From a plasmid: a stretch of 64,000 nt of DNA. This document shows positions 10,443-60,645 of the stretch, one piece after another; position 1 is the stretch's first letter, and every line of letters begins with the position of its first letter. The translations under genes were made by a program, and so were the position numbers. The notes beneath the pieces were generated by a model that saw only the letters and a program-made list of their open reading frames with translations, searched no databases and was not told where the DNA came from. The DNA lies in the sequence record NZ_CP072388.1. One strand, given 5' to 3'.

Positions 10443-10451
10443 CGGTACTCC

Positions 10452-35455: not shown

Positions 35456-35707
35456 ATGACCAGCCAGGGGATCGAGGTCACCGTGTACAGCAAGCCGGCG
35501 TGCGTGCAGTGCGACGCGACGTACCGCGCTCTGGACAAGAAGGGGATCGCGTACACCGTGGTGGACATCAGCGCCGACGCCCTCGCGCTCGAGCGGGTGC
35601 GTGCCCTGGGGCACCTCCAGGCCCCGGTCGTCGTCGCCGGTGACGTGTCGTGGTCCGGGTTTCGGCCCGACCAGGTCAATGCCCTCGCGGCCCGTCAGGA
35701 GGTCTGA
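35456..35707 (+). CDS. nrdH: NrdH-like glutaredoxin/redoxin
   Basis: CVQC active site in a thioredoxin fold of about 80 aa. RBS ggggagg upstream. Confidence 0.65.
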   Translation: MTSQGIEVTVYSKPACVQCDATYRALDKKGIAYTVVDISADALALERVRALGHLQAPVVVAGDVSWSGFRPDQVNALAARQEV

Positions 35708-35708
35708 C

Positions 35709-36734
35709 ATGAGCGACGAGTTGACCCGTGAGCGCACGGTGCAGATCAACGCCGCGGCGTGGGAGTTCTGGCGCTTCCATGCGAACAGTGCTGACGACTG
35801 GACCCGGGCCTACCTCGCCGCACGCGGGCTGCGCGGCCTGCAGGCCGGGTACGCGCCCGAGGGGTGGGCTCGGCTGGTGGGCCGCATGCGCGGCCGCGGG
35901 TTCAGCGCGGACGAGATCGTGGCCGCCGGCCTCGCGTTCCGCACCGAATCCGGCTCGGTAGGGGACGTCTTCCGCGACCGCCTGGTGCTGGCGTACCGCG
36001 ACGAGCACGGCGACATCGTCGGGTTCACCGCGCGTCGCAACCCCGCGCTCGACGACGACGGCGATGCGCCGGCGAAGTACCTCAACACGACCGCCACGCC
36101 CGCGTTCGACAAGAGCCGGGACCTGTACGGCCTCGACCCCGCGGCCGCGCGGAACATCCGTGCCGGCGCGCGCGTCGCGGTCGTCGAGGGCGCCCTGGAC
36201 GCCGAGGCCATCCGCCGCACCGGGACCGCCGTGGTCGCCGTGTCCGGGTGCGGCACCGCGGTCACCGCGACGCACCTCGAGCGGCTGCGCGCGATCCACC
36301 CGGACGCCGTCGCGCTGGCCGTGTTCGCGTTCGACGCCGACGCCGCTGGCCGCGGTGCCGCGTCGCGCGTGTGGGACCTGCTCAACGACGTCGAGGCCGG
36401 CACCGCCGGCGCCCTGGTGCTGCCCGAAGGGACCGACCCCGCGCAACTCGTCCAGGACGGCCACGGGCACGCCCTCGCCGAGCGGCTCGCGCAGCCGACC
36501 AGCCTCGCGAGCGTCGTCGTCGACGCCGAGCTCGCACGCCACGACCTGACGATCCCCGAGGGTCGCGTCGCCGGACTGCGCGCCGCGGCCGCACGCGTCG
36601 CACGCATCCCACAGGCGCCCCTGGCACGCGTCGGCGCCCACCTGCACGCACGCCTGGCGCCGCACACCGACCTGGGCACGATCGCCGGCGAGCTCGCCGT
36701 CGCGCATGCAGGCGCGGCGCGCGGGGGCGCGTGA
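35709..36734 (+). CDS. DnaG-like primase core (TOPRIM domain), no zinc finger
   Basis: TOPRIM Glu (VAVVEGALDAEAI) and DxD (FAFDADAAG). The ATG comes 1 nt after the nrdH stop. Confidence 0.7.
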   Translation: MSDELTRERTVQINAAAWEFWRFHANSADDWTRAYLAARGLRGLQAGYAPEGWARLVGRMRGRGFSADEIVAAGLAFRTESGSVGDVFRDRLVLAYRDEHGDIVGFTARRNPALDDDGDAPAKYLNTTATPAFDKSRDLYGLDPAAARNIRAGARVAVVEGALDAEAIRRTGTAVVAVSGCGTAVTATHLERLRAIHPDAVALAVFAFDADAAGRGAASRVWDLLNDVEAGTAGALVLPEGTDPAQLVQDGHGHALAERLAQPTSLASVVVDAELARHDLTIPEGRVAGLRAAAARVARIPQAPLARVGAHLHARLAPHTDLGTIAGELAVAHAGAARGGA

Positions 36735-36787
36735 TGAGCGCGTGCGGCGCCGCTAGGTTGGCGTCGACACCGACAGGGGAGGGCCAC

Positions 36788-36979
36788 ATGTCGATCAGCG
36801 ACGAAGAGCGCGCGCGACGAGCCGACGACGCCGCCAGGATCCGCCACAGCACCGAGCTCGAGGGCGGCCGCACCGACGACGCCGCACGGGCGATCCAAGA
36901 CCAGTACGTGCGCGGCGAGATCGACAGCGAGGAGCTGGTCCGACGCACCAAGGCCTACCTGAACCTGCCGGAGCGCTGA
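36788..36979 (+). CDS. VbhA-like Fic antitoxin
   Basis: Inhibitory motif HSTELEGG ((S/T)xxxE(G/N)). 63 aa, immediately upstream of the Fic gene. Confidence 0.65.
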   Translation: MSISDEERARRADDAARIRHSTELEGGRTDDAARAIQDQYVRGEIDSEELVRRTKAYLNLPER

Positions 36980-36980
36980 C

Positions 36981-37763
36981 GTGGCGCAACCGTGGGAGAC
37001 GGGTGACGAGATCTCCCGCTGGCATGGGTACCTGCTCGACGACGGCAAGACGCTACGCAACCGCGTCGGCGCCACGACGCCGGACGACCTACGCCGCGCA
37101 GAGGACCACCTCGTGGAGACCCGGGCGCTGTCGCTGCGCGAGCACGACCTGCCCGGCACCTACGACCTCGCCGGCCTGCAGGCCGTCCACCGGCACATGT
37201 TCCAGGACGTCTATGACTGGGCGGGCGAGCTGCGGACGGTGTCGATCCGCAAGAGCGCGGACACGTGGTTCACGCCTGTGCCCGACATCGAACCGTCCAT
37301 GGAAGTGCTCGCTGGCCACCTGCGCGCGTCCGACAACCTGCGCGCGATCGATGCCCAGCACGTGCCGGGTGCGCTCGCCACCGTCTACGACATCGTTAAC
37401 CAGGCACACCCGTTCCGGGAGGGCAACGGCCGCGTCCAGCGCGAGTTCCTGAGCGCCCTTGCGAGCGAGAGCGGGCACCACATCGACTGGACGAAGGTGA
37501 CGCTGTCCGTCGGCGATCGCGAGAACGAAAACGACCGCGTCAGCCGCCTCGCCCTCGCCGGTGACAACGGCCCGATGCGCGACATGTTCGCGCGCATCGT
37601 GACCCGCGCAGACCGCGACAGCTTCGACGTCGCCGCCTTCGAGGCGGTGCGCATCGCGCAGGCCGGTCGGGTGACCCGTCCGCGCTCATCCGAGCACGGA
37701 CCGAGGCCTGCCGCGCCACGTATCCCTGGCGCCTCGCAAGGACAAGAGATCGATCGGACGTAG
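36981..37763 (+). CDS. Fic-family protein (AMPylator-type toxin) with about 80-aa C-terminal extension
   Basis: Canonical Fic motif HPFREGNGRVQR. GTG start 2 nt after the antitoxin stop. Confidence 0.8.
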   Translation: MAQPWETGDEISRWHGYLLDDGKTLRNRVGATTPDDLRRAEDHLVETRALSLREHDLPGTYDLAGLQAVHRHMFQDVYDWAGELRTVSIRKSADTWFTPVPDIEPSMEVLAGHLRASDNLRAIDAQHVPGALATVYDIVNQAHPFREGNGRVQREFLSALASESGHHIDWTKVTLSVGDRENENDRVSRLALAGDNGPMRDMFARIVTRADRDSFDVAAFEAVRIAQAGRVTRPRSSEHGPRPAAPRIPGASQGQEIDRT

Positions 37764-37834
37764 CACCGCTCGGCGCGGTGCGCGGTGAGTACAACGAGGG
37801 GCCCCGCGCAGTGCGCGGGGCCCCTCACTTCGTC

Positions 37835-38146
37835 TCAGTTGGACTCGGACGCCACAGGCTCATCGGACCGAGCGGAGCGCGCCGTCGTGCTCGACCGACG
37901 TCGCGGCGTGCGCGCCTTGCGCTCGGGATCGGGCAAGCCAAGCTTGCGCAGCTCGTCGGCGGTCCACCCGTCGCTGAGCGCGGCCGCGTACGCCCGTGCA
38001 TGCTCGCGCTCGGCGGTCTGTACCTGCGTGCGTAGATCCGCCTCGGCCTGGGCTGCGCGCACCAGTGCACGCACCGACCGGATCCGCTCGTCGAGGAGTT
38101 CGCGGGCCTTCGCCTCGGCAACCTCGGGGTCTAGTTCTCGCGCCAT
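37835..38146 (-). CDS. hypothetical coiled-coil protein (103 aa)
   Basis: ORF with the window's codon bias. Alternative overlapping ORFs on both strands are probable artefacts. Confidence 0.4.
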   Translation of the reverse strand: MARELDPEVAEAKARELLDERIRSVRALVRAAQAEADLRTQVQTAEREHARAYAAALSDGWTADELRKLGLPDPERKARTPRRRSSTTARSARSDEPVASESN

Positions 38147-38254
38147 GCCGCGATGCTACAAACCCCACGACGGCGCGCGCCAGCGCGACGCATCTGGGCG
38201 CCGTCGCAGACACGACACCCGCGCCGAGGGAACGTTGAGCGCACAGGCCTCGGC

Positions 38255-38300
38255 GGAGCAAGCTATACACTTACGTGCCGTAAGTGGCTTGATGGCTCGA
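38255..38300 (+). promoter_or_regulatory. candidate oriT: perfect inverted repeat CACTTACG-tgc-CGTAAGTG followed by gcttgatgg
   Basis: Lies about 100 bp upstream of mobC. Further hairpins lie just downstream (GACGC-tgc-GCGTC; CCCCGCT-gga-GCGGGG). Confidence 0.4.
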
Positions 38301-38384
38301 CGCTGCGCGTCGGCGATGGCACACTGGGCGTGTGGTCCCCGCTGGAGCGGGGTCGCTGCGCTGGGCGAACAGGAGCAAGACGAC

Positions 38385-38783
38385 GTGACCGAGCAGACGA
38401 CGCGAGCACGCAGCCAGAAGCGGCAGCGGCGCGCGAACGTGCCCGGGGGACGACGCCACTACCACCGCGTCGGAGTGACGCCCGAGGAAGAGGCGATGCT
38501 GTTGCAGCGGGCCGCGGCCGCGAAGGTCACCGTGCCGCGCTTGCTCGTCGAGTCTGCGCTTGCGGAGCATGGTGAGACCGCGACCGATCGCGCTGAGTTG
38601 CTGACGGAGCTGTTCCACGCGCGGAGGCTGCTCGCTGCCGTGTCGAACAATCTCAACCAGGTAGCGCGTGCGACGAATGCGACGGGCGAGATCCAGGCCG
38701 AGCTGACGGACACCCTGCGCAACGTGACGATCACCAGCGAGCGGGTCGGGCGGGCGCTTCGACGGTTCGAGGTCGGCGCATGA
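38385..38783 (+). CDS. mobC: MobC-family relaxosome accessory protein
   Basis: Signature NNLNQVARATN. GTG start preceded by aggagcaag. Confidence 0.65.
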   Translation: MTEQTTRARSQKRQRRANVPGGRRHYHRVGVTPEEEAMLLQRAAAAKVTVPRLLVESALAEHGETATDRAELLTELFHARRLLAAVSNNLNQVARATNATGEIQAELTDTLRNVTITSERVGRALRRFEVGA

Positions 38784-40324
38784 TGCCGAACATCACGCGC
38801 GGCGACAGGGTCGCCGGCGTGATGGTGTACCTCGCGGGGGAGGGGCGGCACAACGAGCACACGAACCCGCACGTCGTTGCCGGGCACGACGTCATCGTGG
38901 ACGTGGTCGGCGGGCGCGAGCTGAGCACCGACGACGCTCTCGACATCGCCAACGAGCTCGATCTGCCGCGGCGCGTGTTCGGCACGCGCGTGACCGTCCC
39001 GGTCAAGGAGTGGAGCGAGGAGCAGCAGCGCCAGGTCAAGGTCGGTGACCGGGACGCGCACGTTTGGCACTGCTCGCTGTCGCTGCGCGCCGCGGAGGGC
39101 ACGCTGTCGGACGAGCAGTGGAACCGGATCGCGACCGACTTCGTAGAGGGCATGGGCTTCGGGGCCGCCAGTGACGACGGCGCCGGGTGCCGGTGGGTCG
39201 CGGTCCGGCACGGGCTGTCGTCGGCCGGCAACGACCACGTGCACATCGTGGTGAACCTCGTGCGCGAGGACGGCACGAAGGCGTCGGTGCACAACGACCA
39301 GCCGCGCGCGCAGCGCCTGACGAACGAGCTCGAGCACCGGCACGGGCTGCAGGTGCTCGAGTCGCGCGAGGTCGGACGCGGGGCACTTGCCGGCGCGAAG
39401 CCTGCCGAGCTCGGGCGCGCCGAGCGTGAGGGTGCCGCGCTCCCGGCGCGCGACGAGCTGCGCCGGCGCGTGCGCGCCGCGGCCGCGGAGGCGACGAGCG
39501 AGCGCGAGTTCCTGGACGCGCTGCGCGACGTGCGGGTGCTGGTCCGACCCCGGTACGCCGAGGGCGGGCGCGAGCGCGTCGTCGGGTACTCGGTCGCCCT
39601 CCCGCCGTCGGTCGATGACGGGCGGCGCGCGGCACCGGTGTGGCACGGCGCGGGCCGCCTCGACAACTCCCTGGCGCTCGGCCAGCTGCGCGCCCGCTGG
39701 GGCGCCGACGTCGCCGGCGACCCGGCCCTGACGCCGGCATGGACCCAGCGGTGGACCACCCTTGACGTCGCGGACAAGGTGCGTGCGAGCGAGCCACCGC
39801 GCGACGCCGCACGCGCCCTGGTCGGGCTGTCCGGGACGCTCGGAGACGGCGGACAGCGCCTCGCGGCCGCCGACGCCGCGGGCGTGTTCGCGCGCGCATC
39901 GATCGCGCTCGAGAAGGACAAGCCAGGTCCGCTCGCCAAGCTCTCCGACGACCTCGCCCGCGCGGCCCAGCCCTCGGCCTACACCGCAGAGGACCGTGAC
40001 CGGCAACGGCGCGAGAACGCCGCGCTTGGGGCCGCGTACGTCAGTCGGCTCATGGCCCGCGGCACGGGCAGCGACTCACGCACCGGATGGATCGCCGTCA
40101 TGCGGCAAGCCGAGCGCACCGCCCGCGCGATCGCGCACGCCCAGGCACTGCAGGGACGGGCGGTCGCGGCGGCGCAGACGAACCGTGCGCTCCTCGCCGC
40201 GGTCGCAGCGGTGCCGCAGATGGAAGGCCGCGCCGCGGCGCCGAACCTCGATCCGGGCGCCCACGCGATGCGCGACCGCCGAGGGGCTGCCGTGCGCGAC
40301 GTCGACGTGGAACAAGGCCGCTGA
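38780..40324 (+). CDS. relaxase (MobA/VirD2-type relaxase/mobilisation nuclease domain)
   Basis: His-triad motif GNDHVHIVVNLV. N-terminal region with the putative catalytic Tyr. Overlaps the mobC stop. Confidence 0.8.
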   Translation: MMPNITRGDRVAGVMVYLAGEGRHNEHTNPHVVAGHDVIVDVVGGRELSTDDALDIANELDLPRRVFGTRVTVPVKEWSEEQQRQVKVGDRDAHVWHCSLSLRAAEGTLSDEQWNRIATDFVEGMGFGAASDDGAGCRWVAVRHGLSSAGNDHVHIVVNLVREDGTKASVHNDQPRAQRLTNELEHRHGLQVLESREVGRGALAGAKPAELGRAEREGAALPARDELRRRVRAAAAEATSEREFLDALRDVRVLVRPRYAEGGRERVVGYSVALPPSVDDGRRAAPVWHGAGRLDNSLALGQLRARWGADVAGDPALTPAWTQRWTTLDVADKVRASEPPRDAARALVGLSGTLGDGGQRLAAADAAGVFARASIALEKDKPGPLAKLSDDLARAAQPSAYTAEDRDRQRRENAALGAAYVSRLMARGTGSDSRTGWIAVMRQAERTARAIAHAQALQGRAVAAAQTNRALLAAVAAVPQMEGRAAAPNLDPGAHAMRDRRGAAVRDVDVEQGR

Positions 40325-42624: not shown

Positions 42625-43203
42625 ACCGGTGCGCGGGCGGTCGCCGCCCGCGCACCGTCCGTCGCGTGACGCGATCGCCCGTAGCAGCACTGCAGGTGGC
42701 GGAAACCGACCGTTTCTCGGACGTCGCACAACCAGGTTCTGCGACGTCCGTGAAACGTGGGTTCTGCATCACGCGGCGTTGCTACGAGTCCCTCTTCGCG
42801 AGGTGGGCGTTGAGGGCGGTGCGATCGGCGTCGCCGTCGCGGTCGGCTTGGCGGCCTGGGCGGTGGACGGTGCGATTCGTCGTCCGCGGGTCCATTGGAC
42901 GGCGACGACGATCGCGCGATCAGGTCGGGGGCTCGCCGGCTCCCCAGGCGATGGAGCTGCCGTCGGCTTGGTCGTCGAGCAAGGTGGTGGTGGCGGTGTA
43001 TCCGATGGATGCCCACCAGTCGGCGGCGAGGATCTGCTGGTCGGCTATGACGGCGACGCCGAAGAACGCGTGGAACGCCATGGCGATGAGCAGGATGAGC
43101 GGGCGGATGGGGTAGGCGGCGCGGGTGGGGCCGGGGTCGATCCCGGGGACGACCCAGAAGAACAGGTACCCGCACCGGTGGTCCGCGGTCAGGGCGGCGC
43201 CGT

Positions 43204-44238
43204 CTACCGGGTGGTCTCGAGCGCAGGCACAGCAGGCTTCTCGCGCTCGGGCGTCGCGCGGGGGCGACGGTGCGCGCGCACCACCGTGATGGCGACGGCG
43301 ACCACGAACAGGACGAACCCCACCCAGACCATCACCTGGGTGACGTTGAGCCCCGCCCCGTCCGAGCCCGGCGTGCGCCCGCCGTCACGGCCCGTCGCGG
43401 TGACGAGCAGGACGACGACGATCGTCGCCGAGACCGCGAGGCGACCGACCCAGCGTCCGGCCGTGTCCAGCGCGGACCGCCCGGGCGTGCGGGCCGGCGC
43501 GAGCAGCCGCACCAGGAGCAGCCCGGCGACGGGCAGCTGCAGCAGCCAGATCGTGGTGCGGAACGCCCCGTCGTACCAGACGTTCGTCCCGTACAGCAGG
43601 GTGTGCCACACGCTCAGCACGTACACGAGGATGATCGAGGCGTGTAGCGCCTGCCACACGCGCGGGCCCATCCACCGGCGCGCGTAGAACGCCAGGCCGA
43701 GCGGGATCGACAGGTACAGCGCCAACAGCCCGATCAGGATCGCGATCTGCCCCGTGCCCGAGGAGTAGCCGCCCGGTACGAATACGTCCACGAACGCGCC
43801 CCACAGCAACGCCGGCGTCGAGAGTCCGTCCGCGTTCTCCCGGACCAGCTCGGCGAAGAACCAAAACGCGTGCGCGAACATCAGGCCGATCGTCGTCAGG
43901 CTCGTCGTGCGGTGCCACCGCTCCAGACGTGCCGTCGACACCGGCATCCACGCCGGGCGCCGCGAAGACCGCACCAGCCCGAGCATCACCGTGATCCACG
44001 CCCAGAACAGACCCGACCACCCGAACGCCTGGCACAGCCAGTACATCCAGTACAGCGGCGCGTCCGCGAGGAACGGCATCACCTCGATCGTCGTCGACGT
44101 GCCCTGCGCGACCCGCCAGTACAACAGTGCGAAGATCGCGAGCGTCAGCACCAACGCGGCCGTCGCGTCCTTCCACGACGCCCGCAGGTCCTCGCGCAAC
44201 GCCGCGCCATCGAACTGCGCACCCCTGCCAGTCGTCAT
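43204..44238 (-). CDS. polytopic membrane protein, ferric-reductase/MsrQ-like transmembrane domain (conserved His in TM helices)
   Basis: Internal ATG at 44238 with RBS gaggtg. At least seven TM helices. Divergent from the arsR-CDF operon. Confidence 0.45.
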   Translation of the reverse strand: MTTGRGAQFDGAALREDLRASWKDATAALVLTLAIFALLYWRVAQGTSTTIEVMPFLADAPLYWMYWLCQAFGWSGLFWAWITVMLGLVRSSRRPAWMPVSTARLERWHRTTSLTTIGLMFAHAFWFFAELVRENADGLSTPALLWGAFVDVFVPGGYSSGTGQIAILIGLLALYLSIPLGLAFYARRWMGPRVWQALHASIILVYVLSVWHTLLYGTNVWYDGAFRTTIWLLQLPVAGLLLVRLLAPARTPGRSALDTAGRWVGRLAVSATIVVVLLVTATGRDGGRTPGSDGAGLNVTQVMVWVGFVLFVVAVAITVVRAHRRPRATPEREKPAVPALETTR

Positions 44239-44452
44239 CGACCACACCTCTGTCCAGGACGATGACCACGCCGTCACCGTCGACCGGCCTCGACCGTACT
44301 GGCACCTTTTGACGGCCGTCAAGCAAAAGTAGTGCGCCGCGAACGACTGGTGGCGTGGTGCGGCAGTCTTCGACCCGACTCGAAGACCATGGTTTCGCGC
44401 GCGTCACACCGGCCGAGATTGACCCATCGCCGCTCAGCGATATTATCGCCAT

Positions 44453-44845
44453 ATGACGATGATGCCTGGGGTTGTGCCGCGACCGGTGGATCGGCAGATC
44501 GATGTCGTGGCCACGGCGGTGTACGCGGAGCTGTTCCATGCGCTGTCCGAGCCGACGCGGTTGGCGATCGTGCAGCACCTGGCGATCGGTGAGCACCGGG
44601 TGCGGGATCTGGTGGAGCACATGGGGTTGGCGCAGTCGACGGTGAGTGGGCACCTGGGGTGCCTGCGTGAGTGCGGGCTGGTCACGGTGCGCGTAGAGGG
44701 ACGGTCGTCGTGGTTCTCTTTGTCCGAGCCCGAGCTGTTGGCGGGCCTGTTGGTGGGTGCCGAGCGGTTGCTGGGCGCGACGGGTGAGAAGGTGCGGCTG
44801 TGCACTCACCTGGTGCATCCGGAGACGTCGGGGGAGGGGGCCTGA
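44453..44845 (+). CDS. ArsR/SmtB-family metalloregulator
   Basis: HTH LAIVQHLAIGEHRVRDLVEHMGLAQSTVSGHLGCLRECG. C-terminal Cys/His. Confidence 0.8.
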   Translation: MTMMPGVVPRPVDRQIDVVATAVYAELFHALSEPTRLAIVQHLAIGEHRVRDLVEHMGLAQSTVSGHLGCLRECGLVTVRVEGRSSWFSLSEPELLAGLLVGAERLLGATGEKVRLCTHLVHPETSGEGA

Positions 44846-45786
44846 TGGGCGCGGGGCACAGTCACGGTCCGGCCGATGCGACCGGTGGGGCGGCTCCGGA
44901 CCTTCGTCGCCGGCTCGCGATCGTGTTCGGGCTGACGTCGACGGTCGTGGTGGCGCAGGCGATCGGGTCGTGGGTCACGGGAAGCCTGGCGCTGTTGACC
45001 GACACGGCGCACGCGTTGACGGACGCCACGGGTTTGCTGGTCGCGTTGATCGCCGCCACGTTGATGCTCAGGCCGGCGAACAAGCACCGCACGTGGGGAT
45101 TCCGGCGGATCGAGGTGATCGCCGCGCTCGCGCAGGCGACGTTGTTGATTGTGGTCGGGGTGTACGCAGCGGTCGAGGGGGTGCGGCGCCTGGTGGAGCC
45201 GCCCGAGGTGCAGTCGTCCGAGCTGCTGGTGTTCGGCATCGTGGGCCTGGTCGCGAACATCACGGGGATCGTGATCCTGTCCTCCAGCCGGGGCGCGAAC
45301 TTCAACATGCGGGCCGCGTTCTTGGAGGTCCTCAACGACGCGCTCGGCTCGCTGGGCGTGATCGTGGCGGCGATCGTAATTACGACCACGGGGTTCCAGC
45401 GGGCGGACGCGATCGCGGGCCTGTTCATCGCGGCGCTGATCGTGCCGCGCGCGGTGACGATCCTGCGAGAGACGACGAGCGTGCTGATGGAGTTCACGCC
45501 GAAGGGTCTGGACCTGGACCAGGTCCGGGCGCACATCCTCGGTCTGGCGCACGTGCGTGACGTCCACGATCTGCACGCCTCGACCGTGGCGACGGGGCTG
45601 CCGACGATCTCCGCGCACGTGGTCGTCGACGACGAGTGCTTCACCGACGGGCACGCCCCGACGATCCTGCATGACATCCGCGAATGCGTCGCAGAGCACT
45701 TCCCGGTCTCGCTGGAGCACTCGACGTTCCAGCTCGAGACCGAGCGCCTGCGCGAGCACGAGCCCGCTGATACCCGGCACGCCTGA
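44845..45786 (+). CDS. cation diffusion facilitator (CzcD-like Zn/Co/Cd efflux)
   Basis: Six TM helices. His-rich N-terminus MGAGHSHG. CDF signature region with HALTDA. The ATG overlaps the arsR stop. Confidence 0.85.
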   Translation: MGAGHSHGPADATGGAAPDLRRRLAIVFGLTSTVVVAQAIGSWVTGSLALLTDTAHALTDATGLLVALIAATLMLRPANKHRTWGFRRIEVIAALAQATLLIVVGVYAAVEGVRRLVEPPEVQSSELLVFGIVGLVANITGIVILSSSRGANFNMRAAFLEVLNDALGSLGVIVAAIVITTTGFQRADAIAGLFIAALIVPRAVTILRETTSVLMEFTPKGLDLDQVRAHILGLAHVRDVHDLHASTVATGLPTISAHVVVDDECFTDGHAPTILHDIRECVAEHFPVSLEHSTFQLETERLREHEPADTRHA

Positions 45787-45813
45787 GTAGCCGCGGCAAG
45801 GTCGGGGCGGGGT

Positions 45814-46794
45814 TCAAGTATTGCCGTCGCCGAGTCGGCGCAGGTAGTCGTTGTAGGCGTCGAGCTCGGGGTCGCCGTACTGGTCGATGCGACGGTCGGC
45901 CGCCCGGGTGCGGCGGGTCTCGTCCTTGTTCCAGCGCACGAAGATGATCAGCAGCATGATCAGCGAGGGCAGCTCGCCATAGGACCAGGCCAGCGCCCCG
46001 GCGACGCCCTGGTCGGCGAGCACGTCCACTCCCCAGGTCGCGGGTGGGTGGGTGAATGCGGAGACCAGGGGGGCGCTAGCCATCATGACGATGACGCCGA
46101 AGAACGCGTGGGTGGGCATCTCGATGAACATGTCCGCCGCCCGCCCGAGGTGTCCCTGGGGTCGGGGTAGCGGGTCGCGGGAAAGCACGGGGATGGTGAA
46201 CAGGATCCCCGCCAGCAGGAACAGCAGCTCGAGGGAGAGGTGTCCGGTCCATGTGCCCAGGAGGTTGCCGGCGAGCGGGCTGAGGTACAGGGCGTAGAAG
46301 CACAGCAGGAACAGCGGGATCATCAGGGCTGGGTGCAGCACGACCTGACCGGCCCCTGATCGCAGGCCCCACCGGGCGGCGATGAGCACGGGCCGCCCCA
46401 TCCGGGTATGAGGGGTGGCGCGCAGAAGCAGCGTGCCGGGGCGGCCCAGGACCAGCAGCGGCGGGACGGCCATCATGAGGGTGAGCTGCTGGAACATGAA
46501 CACCGAGTACATCTCCAGGCCGTAGCCCTCCACGCCGGCGCCCATCACCACGACCAGGACGGCGCACCCGGTGAGGAAGGACAGCGTCGCCCACGGCGAC
46601 CAGCGCCGCCCGCTGGCCCAGACGCGGATCGCGCCGGCCAGGTACGCCGCGGCGGCGAGGAGCCCGAGCACGGGGATGACCGGGATGGGCTGCAGCGTCG
46701 GGGCGAGGAACGTCTCCCATGACGGGGGCTCGGTCGGCAGCCACACGGGGCCGTCGAACTGCGTTGGGAGCAGAGGGCCCATGCGCACCTGCAC
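45814..46794 (-). CDS. CtaG(Caa3-type)/CopD-like membrane protein
   Basis: About eight TM helices. Family resemblance to cytochrome oxidase assembly/copper-resistance CopD proteins. No search performed. Confidence 0.5.
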   Translation of the reverse strand: MQVRMGPLLPTQFDGPVWLPTEPPSWETFLAPTLQPIPVIPVLGLLAAAAYLAGAIRVWASGRRWSPWATLSFLTGCAVLVVVMGAGVEGYGLEMYSVFMFQQLTLMMAVPPLLVLGRPGTLLLRATPHTRMGRPVLIAARWGLRSGAGQVVLHPALMIPLFLLCFYALYLSPLAGNLLGTWTGHLSLELLFLLAGILFTIPVLSRDPLPRPQGHLGRAADMFIEMPTHAFFGVIVMMASAPLVSAFTHPPATWGVDVLADQGVAGALAWSYGELPSLIMLLIIFVRWNKDETRRTRAADRRIDQYGDPELDAYNDYLRRLGDGNT

Positions 46795-46892
46795 CTCCGT
46801 TCCTGCCGCCGGGACGGGTCCGGACGCTAGCAGACCTGGCCGGGAGCGCCCTCGGCTCGGGTTCAGGTCGTACCTCTATCATCACCCTCGTC

Positions 46893-47291
46893 ATGGGCAC
46901 CTCGACTCGACCTCGCGTGGGCGCGGCCGCAACGCGGCTCGTGCTCGTCTTCGCGCTGCTCGCGTTGACCGGACTGTTCGCCCTCACCACCGTCGACTCG
47001 ACCGCGCCGGCCGCCGCCGGTGTGGTGGCTGCCGAGCACGTCACCCAGGACCCGTCCGCCGAAGAGGCTGCTGCGCAGCTCGGTGGCAGCGAGGTGCCGC
47101 ACGGTGAGGTGCTGACTTTGCTGTGCCTGTGCGCGCTGCTGATCGCCGGTGTCGTCATCGCAGCCCGGGGCGCGATGCTGCACCGCTCCACGAGACGCCT
47201 GCCCGGTCTTCGTACCCTCGTGGGTGTCTTGCGAGCCGCACGGAGACCCGTTGTCGCCGATCCATGGGTCTGGGGGGTCAGCCGGACGTAG
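46893..47291 (+). CDS. hypothetical exported/membrane protein
   Basis: Signal-like N-terminus and a C-terminal TM. Internal start of ORF 46719..47291. Confidence 0.35.
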   Translation: MGTSTRPRVGAAATRLVLVFALLALTGLFALTTVDSTAPAAAGVVAAEHVTQDPSAEEAAAQLGGSEVPHGEVLTLLCLCALLIAGVVIAARGAMLHRSTRRLPGLRTLVGVLRAARRPVVADPWVWGVSRT

Positions 47292-47494
47292 TCGTCCGGC
47301 CGCCACGACGCGCCAGCACCGCCTGGCCTGCGGTCGCTGACCGCCTCGCTCACCTCCCCCCGCACCACCACGCTGGGCCCTCGTCGACGCTTCGCCCCCG
47401 GATGTTCGACACGAGTTGAGCGCACCCTTGTTCCTGTGCACCCTTGCTGCGCATTCTTGGCGCGGCATGGGCCGTCTTCGGAGGAGACCCGACG

Positions 47495-48412
47495 ATGGAG
47501 ATCTCTGCTTTGAGCGTGCTGCTCGTGTGGTCCAGCGCCACCGCCCTGGTCATCGCCTTGATCGCGTTCGCGGTCGACCTCGCTCAACGTGCCGACCCGC
47601 GCGGCGGCCAGCGCGTGAACCCAGCGGCGACGGCGGTCACCATGCCGCGTCGCGCGGCCGGGATCGCGATGGCCACCACCTGGCTCGCCACGGGGCTGCT
47701 CGTCGTTGCGATCGTGCTGCGTGGCATGGCGGCAGGGCGCACCCCGTGGGCGAACATGTACGAGTTCACCCTGGTGGGTACGTGCGCGGCCCTGCTCGCG
47801 TTCCTCGTGCTGAATGCACGCCGGGACCTGCGGTTCGCCGGCACGTTCGTCACCGGCGTCGCTGCGCTGTTCCTGGTCCTGGCGCTGAACGCGTTCTACA
47901 CCCCGGCCACGGGCTTGTTCCCCGCGCTGCAGTCGTACTGGCTCGTGATCCACGTCGGCGTCGCGATCGGCGCAACCGGGATCTTCACCGTCAGCGCGAT
48001 CCTGTCCGCGCTGCAGCTGCTGCGTGACCACCGCGACGAGGGCGGGGTCGTGCTGGGGCGGCGCTGGTGGCGGTGGCTGGACGTGATGCCGGAGCCGGCC
48101 GCGCTCGAGTCGACGTCTTTCCGGCTCAACGCGGTGGGGTTCGTCGCCTGGACCTTCACGCTGATCGGTGGGGCGATCTGGGCCGAGAGCGCGTGGGGTC
48201 GCTACTGGGGATGGGACCCGAAGGAGGTGTGGACGTTCATCATCTGGATCGTCTACGCCGCCTACCTGCACGCGCGCACCACACGCGGCTGGACAGGTCG
48301 CCGCGCCGCCTACCTCGTCCTGGTCGGATATAGCTGCGTGCTGTTCAACTTCACGGTGGTGAACCTGCTCATCAACGGCAAGCACTCCTACTCCGGGCTG
48401 ACCGCCGGATGA
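47495..48412 (+). CDS. ccsA: cytochrome c biogenesis protein CcsA/ResC-like (heme-handling)
   Basis: Trp-rich WWD motif WGRYWGWDPKEVW with flanking His. RBS ggagga. Confidence 0.75.
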   Translation: MEISALSVLLVWSSATALVIALIAFAVDLAQRADPRGGQRVNPAATAVTMPRRAAGIAMATTWLATGLLVVAIVLRGMAAGRTPWANMYEFTLVGTCAALLAFLVLNARRDLRFAGTFVTGVAALFLVLALNAFYTPATGLFPALQSYWLVIHVGVAIGATGIFTVSAILSALQLLRDHRDEGGVVLGRRWWRWLDVMPEPAALESTSFRLNAVGFVAWTFTLIGGAIWAESAWGRYWGWDPKEVWTFIIWIVYAAYLHARTTRGWTGRRAAYLVLVGYSCVLFNFTVVNLLINGKHSYSGLTAG

Positions 48413-49509
48413 ACGGCGCGACACGGCACGACGTCCTGGTCGTCGGAGGTGGCCAGGCGGGGCTCGTCACCGCGGCCCTGCTCGCCCGCGCCGGCGTGGA
48501 CTACGTCGTGCTCGACGCGGGCGAACGCCCCGGAGCCAGCTGGGCCCGGCGCTGGGACTCGCTGCGGCTGGTCACTCCGGGCCGCTACACGGCCTTGCCC
48601 GACTTCCCCAACCCGTGGCCCGGCGCCTACTACCCGACGAAGGACGAGGTCGCGGCCTACCTCGCCGACTATGCGCGCCACCACGACCTGATCGTGCGTC
48701 ACGGCGTGCGTGTCGACCAGCTCAGCGTCGACAACGCCGGGGTGTTCGTCGCCTCGGGGACGCACGGGGCGACCACGGCGCGGCGCGTGGTCGTGGCGAC
48801 CGGCGCGTTCCACACGCCGTTCGTTCCCGACCTCGCCCACGGGACCGCCGAGCACATCGTGCAGCTGCACTCGCACGACTACCGCGGTCCGCAGGCGACA
48901 CCGGGGAGACGGGTCCTGGTCGTGGGTGGCGGCAACTCCGGCGCACAGATCGCGCTCGAGCTCGCCCGCGACGACCGCGAGGTCCACCTCGCCTGTGCGG
49001 GCAGGCTGCGCAGCGTGCGGCAGGCGTTCGCTGCCGGGCCCGCGCTGTGGTGGATGACGCGCACCGCCACCCTGCGCGCCTCTGGCGGCGTTCTCGGTCG
49101 TCGGCTGCGGATGACCGACCCCGTGATCGGGATCTCCGACGCCGACCTGTGGGCGCTGGGCGTGCGCGTTCGCGAGCGGGTGCGGCAGGTGACCGGCCCG
49201 GACGCGGTGCTCGCGGATGACACGACCTGCCGGCCGGACACGATCGTGTGGGCGACCGGGTACCGCCACGACGACTCCTGGATCGCCGTTTCCCGGGCGC
49301 TGAACCCGCACGGCGCCCTAGTCCACGACGACCACCGCACCCGGATCGCGGGCCTGCACGTCATCGGGCGGCCGTGGCAGCGCACCCGCGGTTCAGCACT
49401 GCTCGGCTTCGTCGGCGATGACGCACGCCGCATGGTCGGCAGCATCCTCAACGATCGTCCCGCGACCGATCACCGCAACCCCGTCGCCCTGGAAGAGGAC
49501 CACCCGTGA
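48409..49509 (+). CDS. FAD/NAD(P)-binding oxidoreductase (flavin monooxygenase-like; CzcO-like)
   Basis: Two Rossmann motifs VVGGGQAG and VLVVGGGNSGAQIA. Confidence 0.7.
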   Translation: MNGATRHDVLVVGGGQAGLVTAALLARAGVDYVVLDAGERPGASWARRWDSLRLVTPGRYTALPDFPNPWPGAYYPTKDEVAAYLADYARHHDLIVRHGVRVDQLSVDNAGVFVASGTHGATTARRVVVATGAFHTPFVPDLAHGTAEHIVQLHSHDYRGPQATPGRRVLVVGGGNSGAQIALELARDDREVHLACAGRLRSVRQAFAAGPALWWMTRTATLRASGGVLGRRLRMTDPVIGISDADLWALGVRVRERVRQVTGPDAVLADDTTCRPDTIVWATGYRHDDSWIAVSRALNPHGALVHDDHRTRIAGLHVIGRPWQRTRGSALLGFVGDDARRMVGSILNDRPATDHRNPVALEEDHP

Positions 49510-49802
49510 CCATCCCGTGGACCGCCATCATCGCGGGGGTCGTGCCCTCCATCGGCGTCGGACTGCTGTTCTGGCTCGCGATGCGCGCGATCATTCACGC
49601 CGACCGCAACGAACGCAACGCCCTCGCCGAGCTCGAGCGCCAGCAGGCCGCGGCCGACGGCACCCGGCACCCCGACCCCGCTACGGCGACTTCATCTGAA
49701 GGCAACGGCATCGACCGTGCCGAGCCTGCTCCGGGGGCACCCGACGACCCGAGCGGCGCCGCCGTCTCGCAACCCACTACCCAACCGCCGAGGAACCCAT
49801 GA
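49506..49802 (+). CDS. small membrane protein
   Basis: One N-terminal TM helix. Translationally coupled on both sides. Confidence 0.4.
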   Translation: MTIPWTAIIAGVVPSIGVGLLFWLAMRAIIHADRNERNALAELERQQAAADGTRHPDPATATSSEGNGIDRAEPAPGAPDDPSGAAVSQPTTQPPRNP

Positions 49803-50452
49803 CGACCCGACGAGTCCTGCAGTCCCTTCTCCTGGTTGGCGTGATCGGACTGGTCGCCATCCTGGTCTGGTTCATCTTGTCCTCGGGGACCGATGACGGC
49901 GCAGCCGCGCCTAGCGGTGACCCTCAGGTCGTGCGAGACAACAGCCACGTCCTAAACCAGGCACCCGAGGAGAAGGCCGTTCTGGTCGAGTTCCTCGACT
50001 TCGAGTGCGAGGTCTGCCGCGCCTACTACCCGACCGTCGAGCAGCTGCGCGAGCGCAATGCCGACGAGCTCACCCTGGTGATCCGCTACTTCCCGATCCC
50101 CTCGCACGCCAACGCGAACAACGCCGCGATCGCGGTCGAGGCCGCCGCCCGCCAGGACCAGATCGAGGCGATGTACCAGCAGATGTACGCCACGCAGGCC
50201 GAGTGGGGCGAGGCACGCGAGTCCAAGGCCGAAGTGTTCCGCGGCTTCGCCCAGGACATCGGCCTGGACATTGAGCAGTATGACGCCGACGTGGCCGACC
50301 CCGACGTCGCAGCCCGCGTCCAGTCCGACTTCGACGAAGGCGTACGCCTGGGAGTGCAAGGCACCCCCACGTTCTTCCTCGACGGCGAGAAGCTGACCGT
50401 GCAGACGCCCGAAGACCTGATTCGGGCCGTCGAGGGCGCGCTCGGCCAGTGA
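49799..50452 (+). CDS. DsbA-family thiol:disulfide oxidoreductase, membrane-anchored
   Basis: CEVC active site in a thioredoxin fold. Confidence 0.8.
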   Translation: MTTRRVLQSLLLVGVIGLVAILVWFILSSGTDDGAAAPSGDPQVVRDNSHVLNQAPEEKAVLVEFLDFECEVCRAYYPTVEQLRERNADELTLVIRYFPIPSHANANNAAIAVEAAARQDQIEAMYQQMYATQAEWGEARESKAEVFRGFAQDIGLDIEQYDADVADPDVAARVQSDFDEGVRLGVQGTPTFFLDGEKLTVQTPEDLIRAVEGALGQ

Positions 50453-51177
50453 GTGTCACCGAGACCGTCTTCTCCGGCGGCCTGCTCCTGGCCCTCCCAC
50501 TCGCCATGGTCGCCGGGCTGGTCTCGTTCGCCTCGCCGTGCATCCTGCCGCTCGTGCCGGGCTACCTGGGGTACGTGGGCGGGATGGGGCGCGAGGTCTC
50601 GCGGCGGCGCCTCATGCTCGGGGTCGGGCTGTTCATTGCCGGGTTCACCGTCGTGTTCGTCGCCTACGGCGCCCTGTTCGGCGCGCTCGGGTCCTGGCTC
50701 GTGCAGCGCCAGGACCTCATGATCCGCGTCTTCGGGGTCCTGGTGGTCCTCATGGGCCTGGTGTTCGTCGGGCAGGTCGGGCCGCTGCAGCGCGTGGTGC
50801 GCCCGTCCTGGACGCCGCGGGTCGGGACCGTCGGAGCCCCGGTCTTGGGGGTGGTGTTCGGTCTCGGCTGGACCCCGTGCCTGGGCCCGACGCTCGTGGC
50901 CATCTCCGCGCTCAGCGTGGACGCCGGTACGGCCGGACGCGGGGCGCTACTCGCTCTCGCGTACTGCTTCGGCCTGGGAGTCCCGTTTGGCCTGGTCGCG
51001 TGGGGCTTCGGGTGGGCGAAGCGTTCCACCACGTTCCTCCGCGAACACCTGCGCGCAATCAACATCGCCGGCGGCGCCGTGCTCGTCCTCATCGGCCTGG
51101 CCATGGTCACCGGACTGTGGACCGTCCTGATGACGACGATGCAGGGTTGGGTCGGTGGTTTCGTCACGCCGATCTAG
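50449..51177 (+). CDS. ccdA: CcdA/DsbD-core cytochrome c biogenesis thiol-disulfide transporter
   Basis: Six TM helices. Conserved Cys in FASPCILPLVP and GWTPCLGP. Confidence 0.8.
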   Translation: MSVTETVFSGGLLLALPLAMVAGLVSFASPCILPLVPGYLGYVGGMGREVSRRRLMLGVGLFIAGFTVVFVAYGALFGALGSWLVQRQDLMIRVFGVLVVLMGLVFVGQVGPLQRVVRPSWTPRVGTVGAPVLGVVFGLGWTPCLGPTLVAISALSVDAGTAGRGALLALAYCFGLGVPFGLVAWGFGWAKRSTTFLREHLRAINIAGGAVLVLIGLAMVTGLWTVLMTTMQGWVGGFVTPI

Positions 51178-51708
51178 TCGGCAACAAGCACCATCGCCCG
51201 ATCCCAATGGCGCGACCAGACCGGGGGTGGTGCGTGGCGGGACGAAAGCCACATGGACCCACGACGGCGCACGCCACCACGCAGGCTGTCGCCCAGAGGA
51301 ACAGGAACCCGACAGCAGCCGCGGCGATGGCAAGGCCGATATCGATCGCCAACCACACCTTGCGCCCTGGCGGCCAGTGCTGGCGTCGGATTCACAGGAG
51401 AAAGACGACCGTCGCCGGGATGGAGACCACGACACCGGTGACCGCACCCAGCGACTACTCGCCGAGGCGTTCCAGGTCGTCAGATGGAAGAGCATGTTCA
51501 TGCCGAGCTGCCACTGGAACGCGGTGTTGCCACCACCCAGCCGTTGCTAGGCCTCGCACGCGGCCTACCGCGCCACTTCCGCCTGTCAGGTGTGCACCGA
51601 GGAGAGCGGCAGCACGATCGCGGCTCGCGCGAGATCCGCGGCAACGTCCGGAGGTGGGCTGAAGCTGCATCGCGCGATGCCTATCCGGGCACCTGGTCGT
51701 CTCGACGC

Positions 51709-52962
51709 TCATCCCACGATCGTCAGGGTCAGCAGGGTGATGTTGAGCACGACGATGACCGCAGCGATGGCGCACGCCGATAGGTGCAGCAGGGCGCCGT
51801 TGCGCCGCGCACCCATCATCCCCGCGTCGCGGGTAACCAATACCAAGGGAATCAGTGCGAACGGGATACCGAAACTGAGTACGACCTGGCTGATGACGAG
51901 CATGCTCGTCGGCGGAACGTCGGTAGCAAGCAGTAGGAGCGCCGGGGTGAGCGTGACCAAGCGTCGGACTAGAAGAGGGATGCGTGTCCGCAGAAGGCCG
52001 CGCATGATCTCCGCCCCGGCGTACGCCCCGACTGAGGTCGAAGCGAGTCCTGACGCGAGCAGACCGACGGCAAAGAGCACCGCGATTGTGGGTCCGAGTG
52101 CTGCTGCGATTGCTGTGTGGGCCCCGCTGATCGTGTCGGTTCCGTCCCGCCCAGCAAGGTTGGTCGCCGCCAGAAGGAGCATCGCAATGTTCACCCCACC
52201 GGCGATTGCCAGCGCGATGACGACGTCCCAGCGTGTCGCACGCAGAAGATGCGCAGTCTCCAGGTCCGTACGCGATCGGCCGTGCCGATCGCGCGCGAGG
52301 GAGGAGTGCAGGTAGATCACGTGGGGCATGACGGTCGCGCCGAGCATTGACGCCGCGAGCAGGACGGACTGCGGGCCATCGAAGCGAGGAACGAGCCCGG
52401 CCGCGGCCTGTGCCCACGGCGGTGGGGTGACAAAAAGGCCAGCCGTGAAGCCGACGGTGAGCACGACAAGCAGACCGGTGATGACGAACTCGAAATGACG
52501 CTGGCGCCGTCGGTGCTGAAGCACGAGAAGCGCCAGGGAGACCACGCCCGTGATCACGCCGCCCAGCACGAGCGGCAGATCGAATAGGAGGTTCAGGGCG
52601 ATGGCCCCGCCGATCACCTCAGCAAGATCAGTGGCCGCCGCGACGAGCTCGGCCTGGCCCCAATAGGCGAGACGGGCGGGCCGAGTAAACCGCTGCCCTA
52701 GCACCTCAGGAAGTGAGCGACCCGTGACGATCCCCAGCTTCGCGGACAGATACTGCACCACCACGGCCATCGCATTCGCCCCGACCAGAACCCACACGAG
52801 CAGGAACCCGAACTGCGCCCCGGCGGAGACGTTCGCCGCGACATTGCCCGGGTCGACGTAAGCGACCGACGCGACGAACGCGGGCCCCAGAAGGCGAAGC
52901 AAACCGAGCCGCTCGGTCCGCGGCGCCGCCCGCCTCGAGTCCTGCCCGACTGCAAGATCCAT
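51709..52962 (-). CDS. mntH: NRAMP-family divalent metal transporter (MntH)
   Basis: DPGN and MPH motifs. Eleven or twelve TM helices. Confidence 0.85.
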   Translation of the reverse strand: MDLAVGQDSRRAAPRTERLGLLRLLGPAFVASVAYVDPGNVAANVSAGAQFGFLLVWVLVGANAMAVVVQYLSAKLGIVTGRSLPEVLGQRFTRPARLAYWGQAELVAAATDLAEVIGGAIALNLLFDLPLVLGGVITGVVSLALLVLQHRRRQRHFEFVITGLLVVLTVGFTAGLFVTPPPWAQAAAGLVPRFDGPQSVLLAASMLGATVMPHVIYLHSSLARDRHGRSRTDLETAHLLRATRWDVVIALAIAGGVNIAMLLLAATNLAGRDGTDTISGAHTAIAAALGPTIAVLFAVGLLASGLASTSVGAYAGAEIMRGLLRTRIPLLVRRLVTLTPALLLLATDVPPTSMLVISQVVLSFGIPFALIPLVLVTRDAGMMGARRNGALLHLSACAIAAVIVVLNITLLTLTIVG

Positions 52963-53023
52963 GTAGCCGAACTATACTCTTCGTGTTCCCGAACTCTCTG
53001 TCGGCCTCGTTGCGTTCCTTCCT

Positions 53024-55075: not shown

Positions 55076-55482
55076 TGCTCGTCCTCGCACGCGGTGCAGC
55101 CCGGGACGTCGCACACCGGGTTCGAGCACTCGCGGCCTTCGCGGACGTCCAGGACCACGCGCATCAGCTCGTCCAGCGCCGCGGACAGGTGCGGGTCCGC
55201 GATCGTGTACTGGGTGCGGCGCCCGTCGGGCTCCGCAAGCACCAAACCGCACCCACGCAGACACGCCAGATGGTTGGACACGTTCTGCCGGCTCAACCCC
55301 AGGGCGTCGGCGAGGTCGGCCGGGTACGCCGGGCCGACGAGGAGACGTTCGAGGATGCGCGCGCGCGTCGGGTCACTCATCGCCCTCCCCAGGCGACCCA
55401 TGACTTCTACACGATCACCAGTGTTCAGCATGTGCTGAACTATACAGTGCAGCGTGAACCTGCGATCCGATCCCATCGACAA
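55072..55482 (-). CDS. ArsR-family metalloregulator with C-terminal Cys cluster (start uncertain)
   Basis: HTH RARILERLLVGPAYPADLADALGLSRQNVSNHLACLRGCG. C-terminal CSNPVCDVPGCTAC. Confidence 0.7.
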   Translation of the reverse strand: MSMGSDRRFTLHCIVQHMLNTGDRVEVMGRLGRAMSDPTRARILERLLVGPAYPADLADALGLSRQNVSNHLACLRGCGLVLAEPDGRRTQYTIADPHLSAALDELMRVVLDVREGRECSNPVCDVPGCTACEDEQ

Positions 55483-55502
55483 GTGTCAGTTATTATCGGT
55501 CT

Positions 55503-55874
55503 GTGTCGATCATAGATACCGAAGTATGTGTGGCGAGTACGGCGGACGTCGAGCCGGCGGTCGCGTTGTTCCGGTCGCTGGGAGATCCCGCGCGACTGGC
55601 GATCGTGCGCCGACTGGCTGTGGGTGAGGCGCGGGTCGCGGAGCTGACGCGCGACCTCGGCTTGGCACAGTCGACAGTGTCCTCGCACGTGGCCTGTCTC
55701 AAGGACTGCGGTCTGGTCTCCGGCCGCATGGAGGGTCGACGGGTCTTCTACTCCCTGGCCCGCCCCGAGCTGCTGGACCTGCTGGGAGCGGCCGAGACGC
55801 TGCTCGCCGCCACCGGTAGCGCCGTCGCCCTGTGCCCGACCTACGGCGTGGACGGGCAGGACTCGGCATGCTGA
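55503..55874 (+). CDS. ArsR-family metalloregulator (CmtR/CadC-like)
   Basis: HTH plus Cys residues (CLKDCG, C-terminal C). Heads the cadD-lspA operon. Confidence 0.75.
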   Translation: MSIIDTEVCVASTADVEPAVALFRSLGDPARLAIVRRLAVGEARVAELTRDLGLAQSTVSSHVACLKDCGLVSGRMEGRRVFYSLARPELLDLLGAAETLLAATGSAVALCPTYGVDGQDSAC

Positions 55875-57433: not shown

Positions 57434-57457
57434 CCCGCGCTCGTCCACCGCCGCGAC

Positions 57458-60251: not shown

Positions 60252-60300
60252 CTTGTTCTTACCTTCTCTTCATCGGTTTGCTGGGTGCAGTGGTGGAGCG

Positions 60301-60546: not shown

Positions 60547-60645
60547 CGGTACATCTCCTGGTCGGGAAGCCTCCAGACTTCGACTGTCATCGAAGTCTTC
60601 AGCGACAATATTGCCACAGACTTCGATACATGTCAACATGTACGC

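Follow-up and report, generated by a model that had tools for sequence, protein, structure and literature searches.

The question raised by positions 35456-37763 of a plasmid stretch of 64,000 nucleotides (record NZ_CP072388.1; hereinafter, this whole stretch is called the window) is whether proteins encoded beside the relaxase genes are delivered into recipient cells together with the plasmid DNA. Four tightly packed genes of the plus strand occupy this region and encode an NrdH-type redoxin, a primase, a VbhA-family antitoxin and a Fic toxin. A previous sequence-only reading had placed them among the candidate substrates of a conjugative type IV secretion system (T4SS), with the suggestion that the C-terminal tail of Fic could be a novel translocation signal; its gene calls were confirmed, both in position and in strand. 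When the Fic tail was compared with relaxase-associated proteins, a terminal motif common to Fic and to the relaxases of this plasmid family was found. The features on which the comparison is based are as follows:

36788-36979, plus strand: VbhA-family antitoxin of 63 aa; its inhibitory motif, (S/T)xxxE(G/N), has the form STELEG (PF18495, 47.8 bits with a cut-off of 25.9, 1.4e-12)
36981-37610, plus strand: catalytic core of the Fic toxin, aa 1-210, with HPFREGNGRVQR at aa 143-154 (PF02661, 48 bits; NF045983 (VbhT) over the FIC part; PRK10347 over aa 16-211)
37611-37763, plus strand: C-terminal extension of Fic, with a weak helix (aa 217-230), a disordered Pro/Arg/Ala-rich linker (aa 231-251) and, just before the stop codon, the terminal SQGQEIDR-T (aa 252-260, nt 37734-37760)
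38780-40324, plus strand: MOBP/Q-type relaxase, 514 aa, ending in RDVDVEQGR (PF03432, 1.3e-15)

The whole Fic protein comprises 260 aa (36981-37763). Its active site, HPFREGNGRVQR, corresponds to the HxFx(D/E)GNGRxxR pattern and is located within a Fic fold that is recognized by PF02661 and modeled by AlphaFold with a predicted local distance difference test score (pLDDT) above 90 for aa 1-210. The top match of Fic in the PDB is VbhT (entries 3ZCB and 3SHG, E = 1.5e-23); a phmmer search against the PDB with VbhA gave no match. The ribosome-binding site GGGGAGGG is located at the vbhA start, the vbhA stop is separated by 1 nt from the fic start, and the VbhA homologues (60-76 aa) are always encoded immediately upstream of fic. 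Judging by these matches, the pair is a FicTA-type toxin-antitoxin (TA) module with an intact active site and an inhibitory antitoxin, in agreement with the VbhA-type antitoxin and Fic protein named previously (PF18495 and PF02661). According to the domain search, the protein contains the Fic domain alone; no BID domain was detected, and Pfam shows nothing beyond Fic, as the sequence-only reading had stated.

As for the tail, its length had been overestimated. Instead of about 80 aa beyond the Fic fold, approximately 50 aa were found, with E. coli Fic covering aa 16-211 and the AlphaFold pLDDT exceeding 90 up to about aa 210. Further on, the helix of aa 217-230 has a pLDDT of 65, and the values of the tail are 44-53, with aa 231-260 being disordered. 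The best 120 Fic homologues exist in two forms, namely, an untailed form of 212 aa (Mycobacteriales-type), which stops just past the fold, and a tailed form. About 60 tailed proteins (250-360 aa) have an unconserved Pro/Arg/Ala-rich linker; their last residues are almost always G-Φ-(G/E/S)-R, in some cases with an additional D or E after it (DYGR, GYGR, GLGR, GLER, GVER, GYER, GVGRD). The untailed homologues lack this motif and score like background in the relaxase-based matrix described below; those of Mycobacteriales (P0031-P0105) end in a conserved D-x-x-P-A-Y-(D/E)-F.

Nearly all of the best 120 homologues of the window relaxase (41-94% identical) end in variants of RD-x-G-Φ-(G/E)-R, for example, RDSGYGR, RDNGIER, ERDHGYER, GPDLGR, RDAGTEIER and PDRSEIDR. 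A position weight matrix (PWM) of 8 positions was trained only on 78 non-redundant relaxase tails, which avoids circularity, and was applied to Fic proteins and to a background set of 594 C-termini from the same high-GC loci. The matrix is crude; with it, 75% of the 44 non-redundant tailed Fic proteins exceeded the 95th percentile of the background and 43% exceeded the 99th (Mann-Whitney p = 1e-19). The window Fic tail (9.41, the 99.3rd percentile) has the top score among all window proteins, and the window relaxase tail is at the 97th percentile. Among the window C-termini scored, the motif is absent from the primase, NrdH, VbhA, MobC and the open reading frame (ORF) of 103 codons that lies between fic and mobC (ORF103). 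The C-terminal position outscores all 25 internal tail positions in 80% of cases, and the difference is still seen when the background proteins used for comparison have tails that are rich in Arg and of low complexity (p = 2e-10). An effect of composition alone (Arg-rich tails, high GC content) was ruled out, since shuffled versions of the last 30 aa score -4.66±0.66 and the observed tails 5.41.

A shared domain, or a bipartite signal including the helix of aa 217-230, was considered as well and rejected: the hhalign comparison of 37 Fic with 92 relaxase tails aligns the last 8 columns only (P = 0.024). Because only these columns match, the element common to Fic and relaxases is a short linear motif and not a domain, and it is at the level of this motif that Fic and the relaxase of the same system have a common C-terminal element. 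Relaxases are obligatory T4SS substrates, so the sharing of the motif with them supports the idea of a translocation signal.

More evidence was obtained from plasmids with another relaxase family. MobF relaxases end in G-P-x-(L/I/M/V) in 40 of 95 cases, compared with 2 of the 594 background C-termini. Plasmid pTL2A has a MobF relaxase in place of the MOBP-type enzyme, and exactly 3 of its 63 annotated proteins have a GP-type ending, namely, Fic (TPGPRLT), the MobF relaxase (TRGPRL) and a 331-aa protein encoded right after it (APRGPRI). Four neighboring proteins of L091 (labels with L denote the compared sequence contexts) have such an ending, and in L090 the Fic protein (GGPQL) is encoded beside an 1866-aa methyltransferase-helicase protein ending in RGPRIE. 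On all plasmids with MOBP-type relaxases, Fic of the first class (RD-x-G-Φ-(G/E)-R-like ending) goes with a relaxase of the same class. For nine plasmids, the mean Fic-relaxase tail alignment score was 21.9 within a plasmid and 14.7 across plasmids (permutation p = 3e-4, or 9e-4 without the redundant L091), a result obtained with few (9-11) and phylogenetically clustered same-plasmid pairs, to which the pair of the window adds nothing.

Several further proteins of MobF-type elements were noted in the course of this comparison. Endings of the GP-R-(I/L) type occur in unannotated neighbors of the relaxase (L001, 10646-11641; L091, 5947-6633 and 6674-7669) and in the methyltransferase-helicase protein of L090 (4111-9711); these relaxase neighbors and the 1866-aa protein are candidates for further members of the same substrate set. 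In addition, MobF relaxases of Promicromonospora (P0301-P0359) show a third ending, G-(R/W/H)-(G/S)-W, such as GWGW, SRGW and GHSW. No Fic with this third, G-x-G-W type of ending was found among the 120 homologues examined.

The motif is not confined to Fic and relaxases. The highest-scoring proteins of the nominal background proved to be zeta toxins encoded on the same plasmids, and proteins encoded just after relaxases score high too. The zeta (PezT-like) toxins with an ending of the first class are encoded in L084 (11746-12762, DRGSGLER), L002 (10202-11200, SDPAVER), L083 (14612-15616, HDGPHR) and L095 (7193-8200, ERDTGPQR). Within the window, a similar ending is found in a protein encoded at the transfer machinery:

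2110-2952, minus strand: 280-aa protein, last gene of the operon with the type IV coupling protein (T4CP) and DUF4913, ending in RDHAAELTR; C-terminus of the family Φ-(S/T/G/E)-R
2985-8294, minus strand: conjugation machinery, comprising DUF4913 (2985-3395, PF16259), the T4CP (3392-5143, PF12696 and PF02534), a VirB4-like ATPase (5143-6795) and an SCO6880-family protein (6792-8294)

The family of the 280-aa protein (45 representatives) has a Lys/Arg-rich tail with a final E/G-L-S/T/G-R. At 50% identity, 32 of 41 full-length representatives end in Φ-(S/T/G/E)-R (ELTR, ELSR, GLSR, GLGR), compared with 23 of the 594 background C-termini. The protein is homologous to a 378-aa protein at the same position in L086. 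Pfam and NCBIfam give no annotation either for it or for the proteins encoded downstream of relaxases. A pair of toxins with a common C-terminal module was also seen outside Actinobacteria: in L007/L009 (Aromatoleum, Betaproteobacteria; 9965-11098 and 11988-13565), adjacent genes encode a Fic protein (377 aa) and a zeta toxin (525 aa), each with a C-terminal KfrB domain (PF18790) and a charged tail. It is a parallel case, with two TA toxin families having one common C-terminal module.

The earlier suggestion that the Fic tail is a novel translocation signal thus gains comparative support, as the motif is common to relaxases, position-specific and absent from untailed Fic proteins and switches class with MobF; translocation itself is a prediction from the sequence data. 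We consider the chances even that the window Fic is carried into recipients during mating, as an actinobacterial analogue of VbhT of Bartonella. According to this explanation, the inhibitory glutamate of VbhA would keep Fic, a class-I AMPylator, inactive. By homology to FicT and VbhT, Fic would poison DNA gyrase and topoisomerase IV through AMPylation of GyrB/ParE. The T4CP would read the C-terminal motif, and Fic would enter the recipient with or ahead of the DNA during mating. In the recipient, gyrase and topoisomerase IV would be AMPylated by Fic until the incoming plasmid yields VbhA. The purpose may be, for example, a transient arrest of the recipient or the killing of recipients that fail to establish the plasmid together with its antitoxin.

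Several points weigh against this explanation. The similarity of Fic and relaxase tails is confined to about 8 residues, and the tails of the window's own proteins (GQEIDRT in Fic and DVEQGR in the relaxase) are alike only at the level of the class; the score of this pair, 12, is no better than the cross-plasmid mean of 14.7. Tailed fic genes occur with no relaxase within 10 kb in L084, L088 and L092. The 280-aa protein of the T4SS operon could be a component of the machine, and the motif may then mean docking at the coupling complex and not export. Binding by the T4CP and protein transfer are steps that we infer from sequence comparisons. Finally, neither this motif nor any C-terminal signal of actinobacterial relaxases or T4SSs is described in the searched literature, including a 2025 review; its coverage is incomplete and this is absence of evidence only, and as far as it shows, no experiment has ever defined the substrate signals of actinobacterial T4SSs.

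The closest competitor is that VbhA/Fic functions as an ordinary plasmid-stabilizing TA system; Fic would then stay in the cell, and its tail would be tolerated or would tune stability or activity in the donor. The canonical FicTA architecture with translational coupling fits this explanation, as do the occurrence of Fic homologues on 2030 plasmids across many phyla and the untailed 212-aa homologues, which are evidently functional with no tail at all. The tailed copies distant from any relaxase, mentioned above, are located beside other TA or defence genes. Left unexplained, however, are the conserved and position-specific motif at the end of an otherwise unconserved linker, the identity of this motif with the relaxase C-terminus, its switch of class with the relaxase family, and its presence in unrelated zeta toxins of the same plasmids. 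A function restricted to plasmid addiction is therefore rather unlikely, though it deserves serious consideration.

Another explanation refers to the order in which DNA enters the recipient, and it requires the region between fic and the relaxase to be considered. The sequence-only reading had placed Fic directly upstream of mobC; instead, a hairpin, a minus-strand ORF and a block resembling an origin of transfer (oriT) intervene:

37796-37826, no strand: perfect GC-rich hairpin with 15-nt arms (inverted repeat I1; the arms are 100% complementary and 1 nt apart), separating the convergent fic and ORF103
37835-38146, minus strand: ORF103, 103 aa, convergent with fic and divergent from mobC, pointing away from oriT; positional homologues exist
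38250-38368, no strand: candidate oriT, non-coding, with the conserved block GGCGGAGCAAGCTATACACTTACGTGCCGTAAGTGG, in which CACTTACG/CGTAAGTG form an inverted repeat, and with another conserved hairpin, GGTCCCCGC...GCGGGGTC
38385-38783, plus strand: NikA/MobC-like relaxosome accessory protein, 132 aa (PF21983, 29.7 bits, above the cut-off; PF05713, 22.8 bits, just under the cut-off)

The hairpin is likely a bidirectional terminator. ORF103 encodes a protein with an acidic C-terminus and shows no family match in Pfam or NCBIfam; its homologues, with GWT-x-DELRKLGL, occupy the corresponding place in L083 (102 aa), L086 (119 aa), L002 (116 aa) and L093 (103 aa). The block at 38250-38368 holds GAGCAAGCTATACACTTACGTGCCGTAAGTGG with an 8-bp inverted repeat, and inverted repeat I2 is reported. 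It is almost invariant over five plasmids with relaxases that are only about 50% identical, and its flanks are unconserved; this block is the probable oriT/nic region of the plasmid family. The candidate oriT, mobC and the relaxase gene are all located within 1 kb, and the window also encodes the T4CP, the VirB4-like ATPase and the SCO6880-family protein; Fic is encoded at the DNA transfer and replication (Dtr) locus of an element with a complete T4SS.

The cluster represents the oriT-proximal end of a co-oriented block encoding ParB-like, DUF6573, DUF3560, NrdH, primase, VbhA and Fic proteins. The order ParB-DUF6573-DUF3560-...-nrdH-primase-vbhA-fic-small ORF-mobC-relaxase is repeated in Cellulosimicrobium cellulans (L083) and in L095, and VbhA-Fic is encoded within 4 kb of a relaxase gene in 10 contexts (the window, L001, L002, L021, L083, L086, L087, L091, L093 and L095). 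The close synteny contexts were taken from contigs encoding homologues and from a plasmid collection. The matches listed in a scan of genome contigs were mostly distant Fic relatives (no more than 44% identity).

According to the second explanation, the cluster is a leading-region module, whose DNA enters the recipient first and is transcribed early to give primase, redoxin and the TA system, with no protein being transferred. All genes of the block of 29.2-37.8 kb point towards oriT, the relaxase operon faces away from it, and the cluster abuts the conserved oriT block. The same arrangement, with a block towards oriT and the relaxase operon away from it, is known for the F plasmid. TA genes are over-represented and co-oriented in plasmid leading regions (PMC11541004), which is also in favor of such a module. 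Similar to the leading regions of Samuel et al. (2024), the window has an oriT-adjacent block with co-oriented genes and a TA module; the difference is that the orientation of vbhA-fic varies among relatives. In L086 and L002, this gene pair is reversed relative to oriT and the tail motif is nevertheless kept. Early entry of the genes gives no account of the tail. It is compatible with the injection of Fic and does not exclude it, and as the actual explanation of the cluster, it seems improbable.

The remaining part of the cluster concerns the primase and the redoxin, both of which had been included in the proposed cargo:

35456-35707, plus strand: NrdH-type glutaredoxin-like redoxin, 83 aa, with the CxxC motif CVQC (TIGR02194, 98.2 bits with a cut-off of 85.75; PF00462), opening the nrdH-primase pair
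35709-36734, plus strand: DnaG-core primase without a zinc-binding domain, 341 aa (PF08275, 2.8e-22; Toprim_2, Toprim, Toprim_4; weak DnaB_bind)

The TIGR02194 match above the cut-off, together with CVQC, assigns the first protein to the NrdH subfamily. The ribosome-binding site GGGGGAGGG is located upstream of nrdH, whose stop is separated by 1 nt from the primase start (35705-35711). The same 1-nt spacing of the nrdH-primase pair was found in all four plasmids with a stand-alone primase (the window, L001, L083 and L084). The nrdEF genes of class Ib ribonucleotide reductase are not located beside nrdH, which is flanked by the genes for a membrane/helix-turn-helix (HTH) protein and the primase. 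The primase has the RNA-polymerase core, DNAG_N followed by Toprim, with VVEGALDA and FDADAAG representing the EGxxD and DxD motifs. No CHC2 zinc-binding domain is present at its N-terminus: the TIGR01391 alignment is limited to model positions 108-400 of 414 and thus lacks the zinc-finger part, and the frame upstream enters nrdH. In this respect, the zinc-finger-less DnaG core described in the sequence-only reading proved correct.

The possibility that the stand-alone primase, and perhaps NrdH, is itself an exported T4SS substrate, like Sog or TraC, received little support. Its C-terminus is at the background level (PWM -8.4, 38th percentile), the C-termini of stand-alone primases are unconserved, and the tail-motif criterion gives the earlier cargo proposal no support; NrdH, with no tail motif, likewise shows no sign of being cargo. 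On the other hand, about two thirds of the retrieved Micrococcales MobF relaxases (1600-1790 aa; P0243-P0359) hold the same zinc-finger-less primase as a domain at approximately aa 1100-1450, followed by a 200-300-aa linker and the C-terminal motif. The window primase (aa 2-336) is 44% identical to aa 1123-1455 of the MobF relaxase P0248 (E = 4e-70), that is, over the full length. On MobF plasmids with this fusion, the primase would enter the recipient as a part of the relaxase, because the two are fused. The gene fusion in related plasmids shows that the primase is functionally tied to the relaxase, and not that it is exported independently. Like the conjugative primases Sog of ColIb-P9, TraC of RP4 and MobA-RepB' of RSF1010, the window primase is plasmid-encoded and associated with transfer genes and has relatives fused to a relaxase; it differs from them in being a stand-alone DnaG core with neither a zinc finger nor the tail motif. 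Its independent export is thus quite unlikely. The primase, itself untagged, would rather act with the relaxase by priming synthesis of the complementary strand.

The least probable explanation is that the motif has another role, either as a degradation tag or as a docking site through which the relaxase, the toxins and the 280-aa protein are bound to the donor's coupling complex or relaxosome with no export; a conserved T4CP-operon protein that is maybe structural or accessory does end in the motif, but relaxases are exported substrates by definition, and degradation tags of TA systems are normally located on antitoxins and not on toxins. Disordered, charged C-termini are, moreover, the usual form of T4SS signals (PMC5675462).

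The injection of Fic through the T4SS, which we prefer to these alternatives, has a precedent. VbhT of the Bartonella schoenbuchensis plasmid pVbh combines a FicT toxin with a BID signal that is almost the same as the signal of TraA, the relaxase of this plasmid, and the conjugative Vbh T4SS translocates the protein (PMC5675462). The window Fic resembles VbhT in being a class-I Fic protein with a separate VbhA, in being encoded at a Dtr locus beside the relaxase of a conjugative plasmid, and in having a C-terminal extension similar to the C-terminus of the cognate relaxase. The two differ in that the window Fic has no BID domain; its extension of about 50 aa is mostly disordered and ends in an 8-residue motif, whereas BID is a folded domain of about 100 aa. 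In addition, the window system belongs to a monoderm actinobacterium and has an SCO6880/VirB4-like T4SS, not a VirB-type one, and the transfer of VbhT has been demonstrated, whereas the window system is known from sequence. In common with plain FicT/FicA modules, the window pair has the Fic motif, an antitoxin with the inhibitory glutamate and an operon in which the antitoxin gene comes first; plain FicT proteins, like the 212-aa actinobacterial homologues, end with the Fic fold, whereas the window Fic is tailed. A PezT/zeta toxin with a BID domain, encoded on plasmid 1 of Chelativorans sp. BNC1, is a proposed T4SS substrate, and further toxins with short, hard-to-recognize C-terminal signals have been predicted (PMC5675462). 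The zeta toxins of L084, L002, L083 and L095 are similar to the Chelativorans protein in that a second TA toxin family bears the C-terminal element of the relaxase; the difference is that a short motif takes the place of BID, and no zeta toxin is encoded in the window.

As for the plasmid itself, the window (G+C content about 70%) belongs, by its gene content, to a T4SS-type conjugative plasmid of Micrococcales, near Cellulosimicrobium and Isoptericola; among annotated plasmids, those of Cellulosimicrobium, Cellulomonas and Isoptericola are its closest relatives. The conjugation block at 2985-8294 recurs in pTL2A, L086 and L093. Its VirB4-like ATPase gave weak VirB4-family matches, and NF042935 was matched in the block at 4.6e-143. 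The window further encodes PrimPol/HTH Rep, ParA, ParB-like, DUF4192, DUF6573 and DUF3560 proteins. The regions at 43200-62000 and 63363-63992 look accessory, with ArsR-type regulator-like and membrane/transporter-like ORFs and a possible start of a serine recombinase gene at the end; this impression is based on ORF translations and on the likeness of C-termini to those of the ArsR/CadD genes of pTL2A. PLSDB/MOB-suite types both pTL2A (NZ_CP101476.1) and p110066 (NZ_CP081863.1) as "non-mobilizable" despite their relaxase genes, and pTL2A additionally encodes a T4CP, a VirB4-like ATPase and an SCO6880-family protein. This typing evidently under-recognizes the conjugation modules of actinobacteria.

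If the comparisons are extended to the whole group, it is quite possible, although we hold this tentatively, that conjugative T4SSs of actinobacteria use a short C-terminal code. Such a code would have at least two interchangeable classes, RD-x-G-Φ-(G/E)-R with MOBP-type and G-P-x-(L/I/M/V) with MobF-type relaxases, and possibly a third, G-x-G-W. It would mark the relaxase and co-transferred proteins, including Fic and zeta toxins, the window Fic being one such injected effector.

Short T4SS signals are notoriously hard to predict. The motif described here is a concrete candidate signal that can be tested cheaply; relaxases share it with two unrelated families of toxins and with proteins of the transfer locus, and its class changes along with the relaxase family. 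If the candidate is correct, the delivery of toxins alongside conjugation, so far shown only for VbhT of Bartonella, would be found in a distant phylum and with another machine as well, and the transferred proteome of these plasmids would be predictable from sequence. It would also raise the question of the role that toxins play in plasmid spread, for example, through recipient arrest or enforced establishment.

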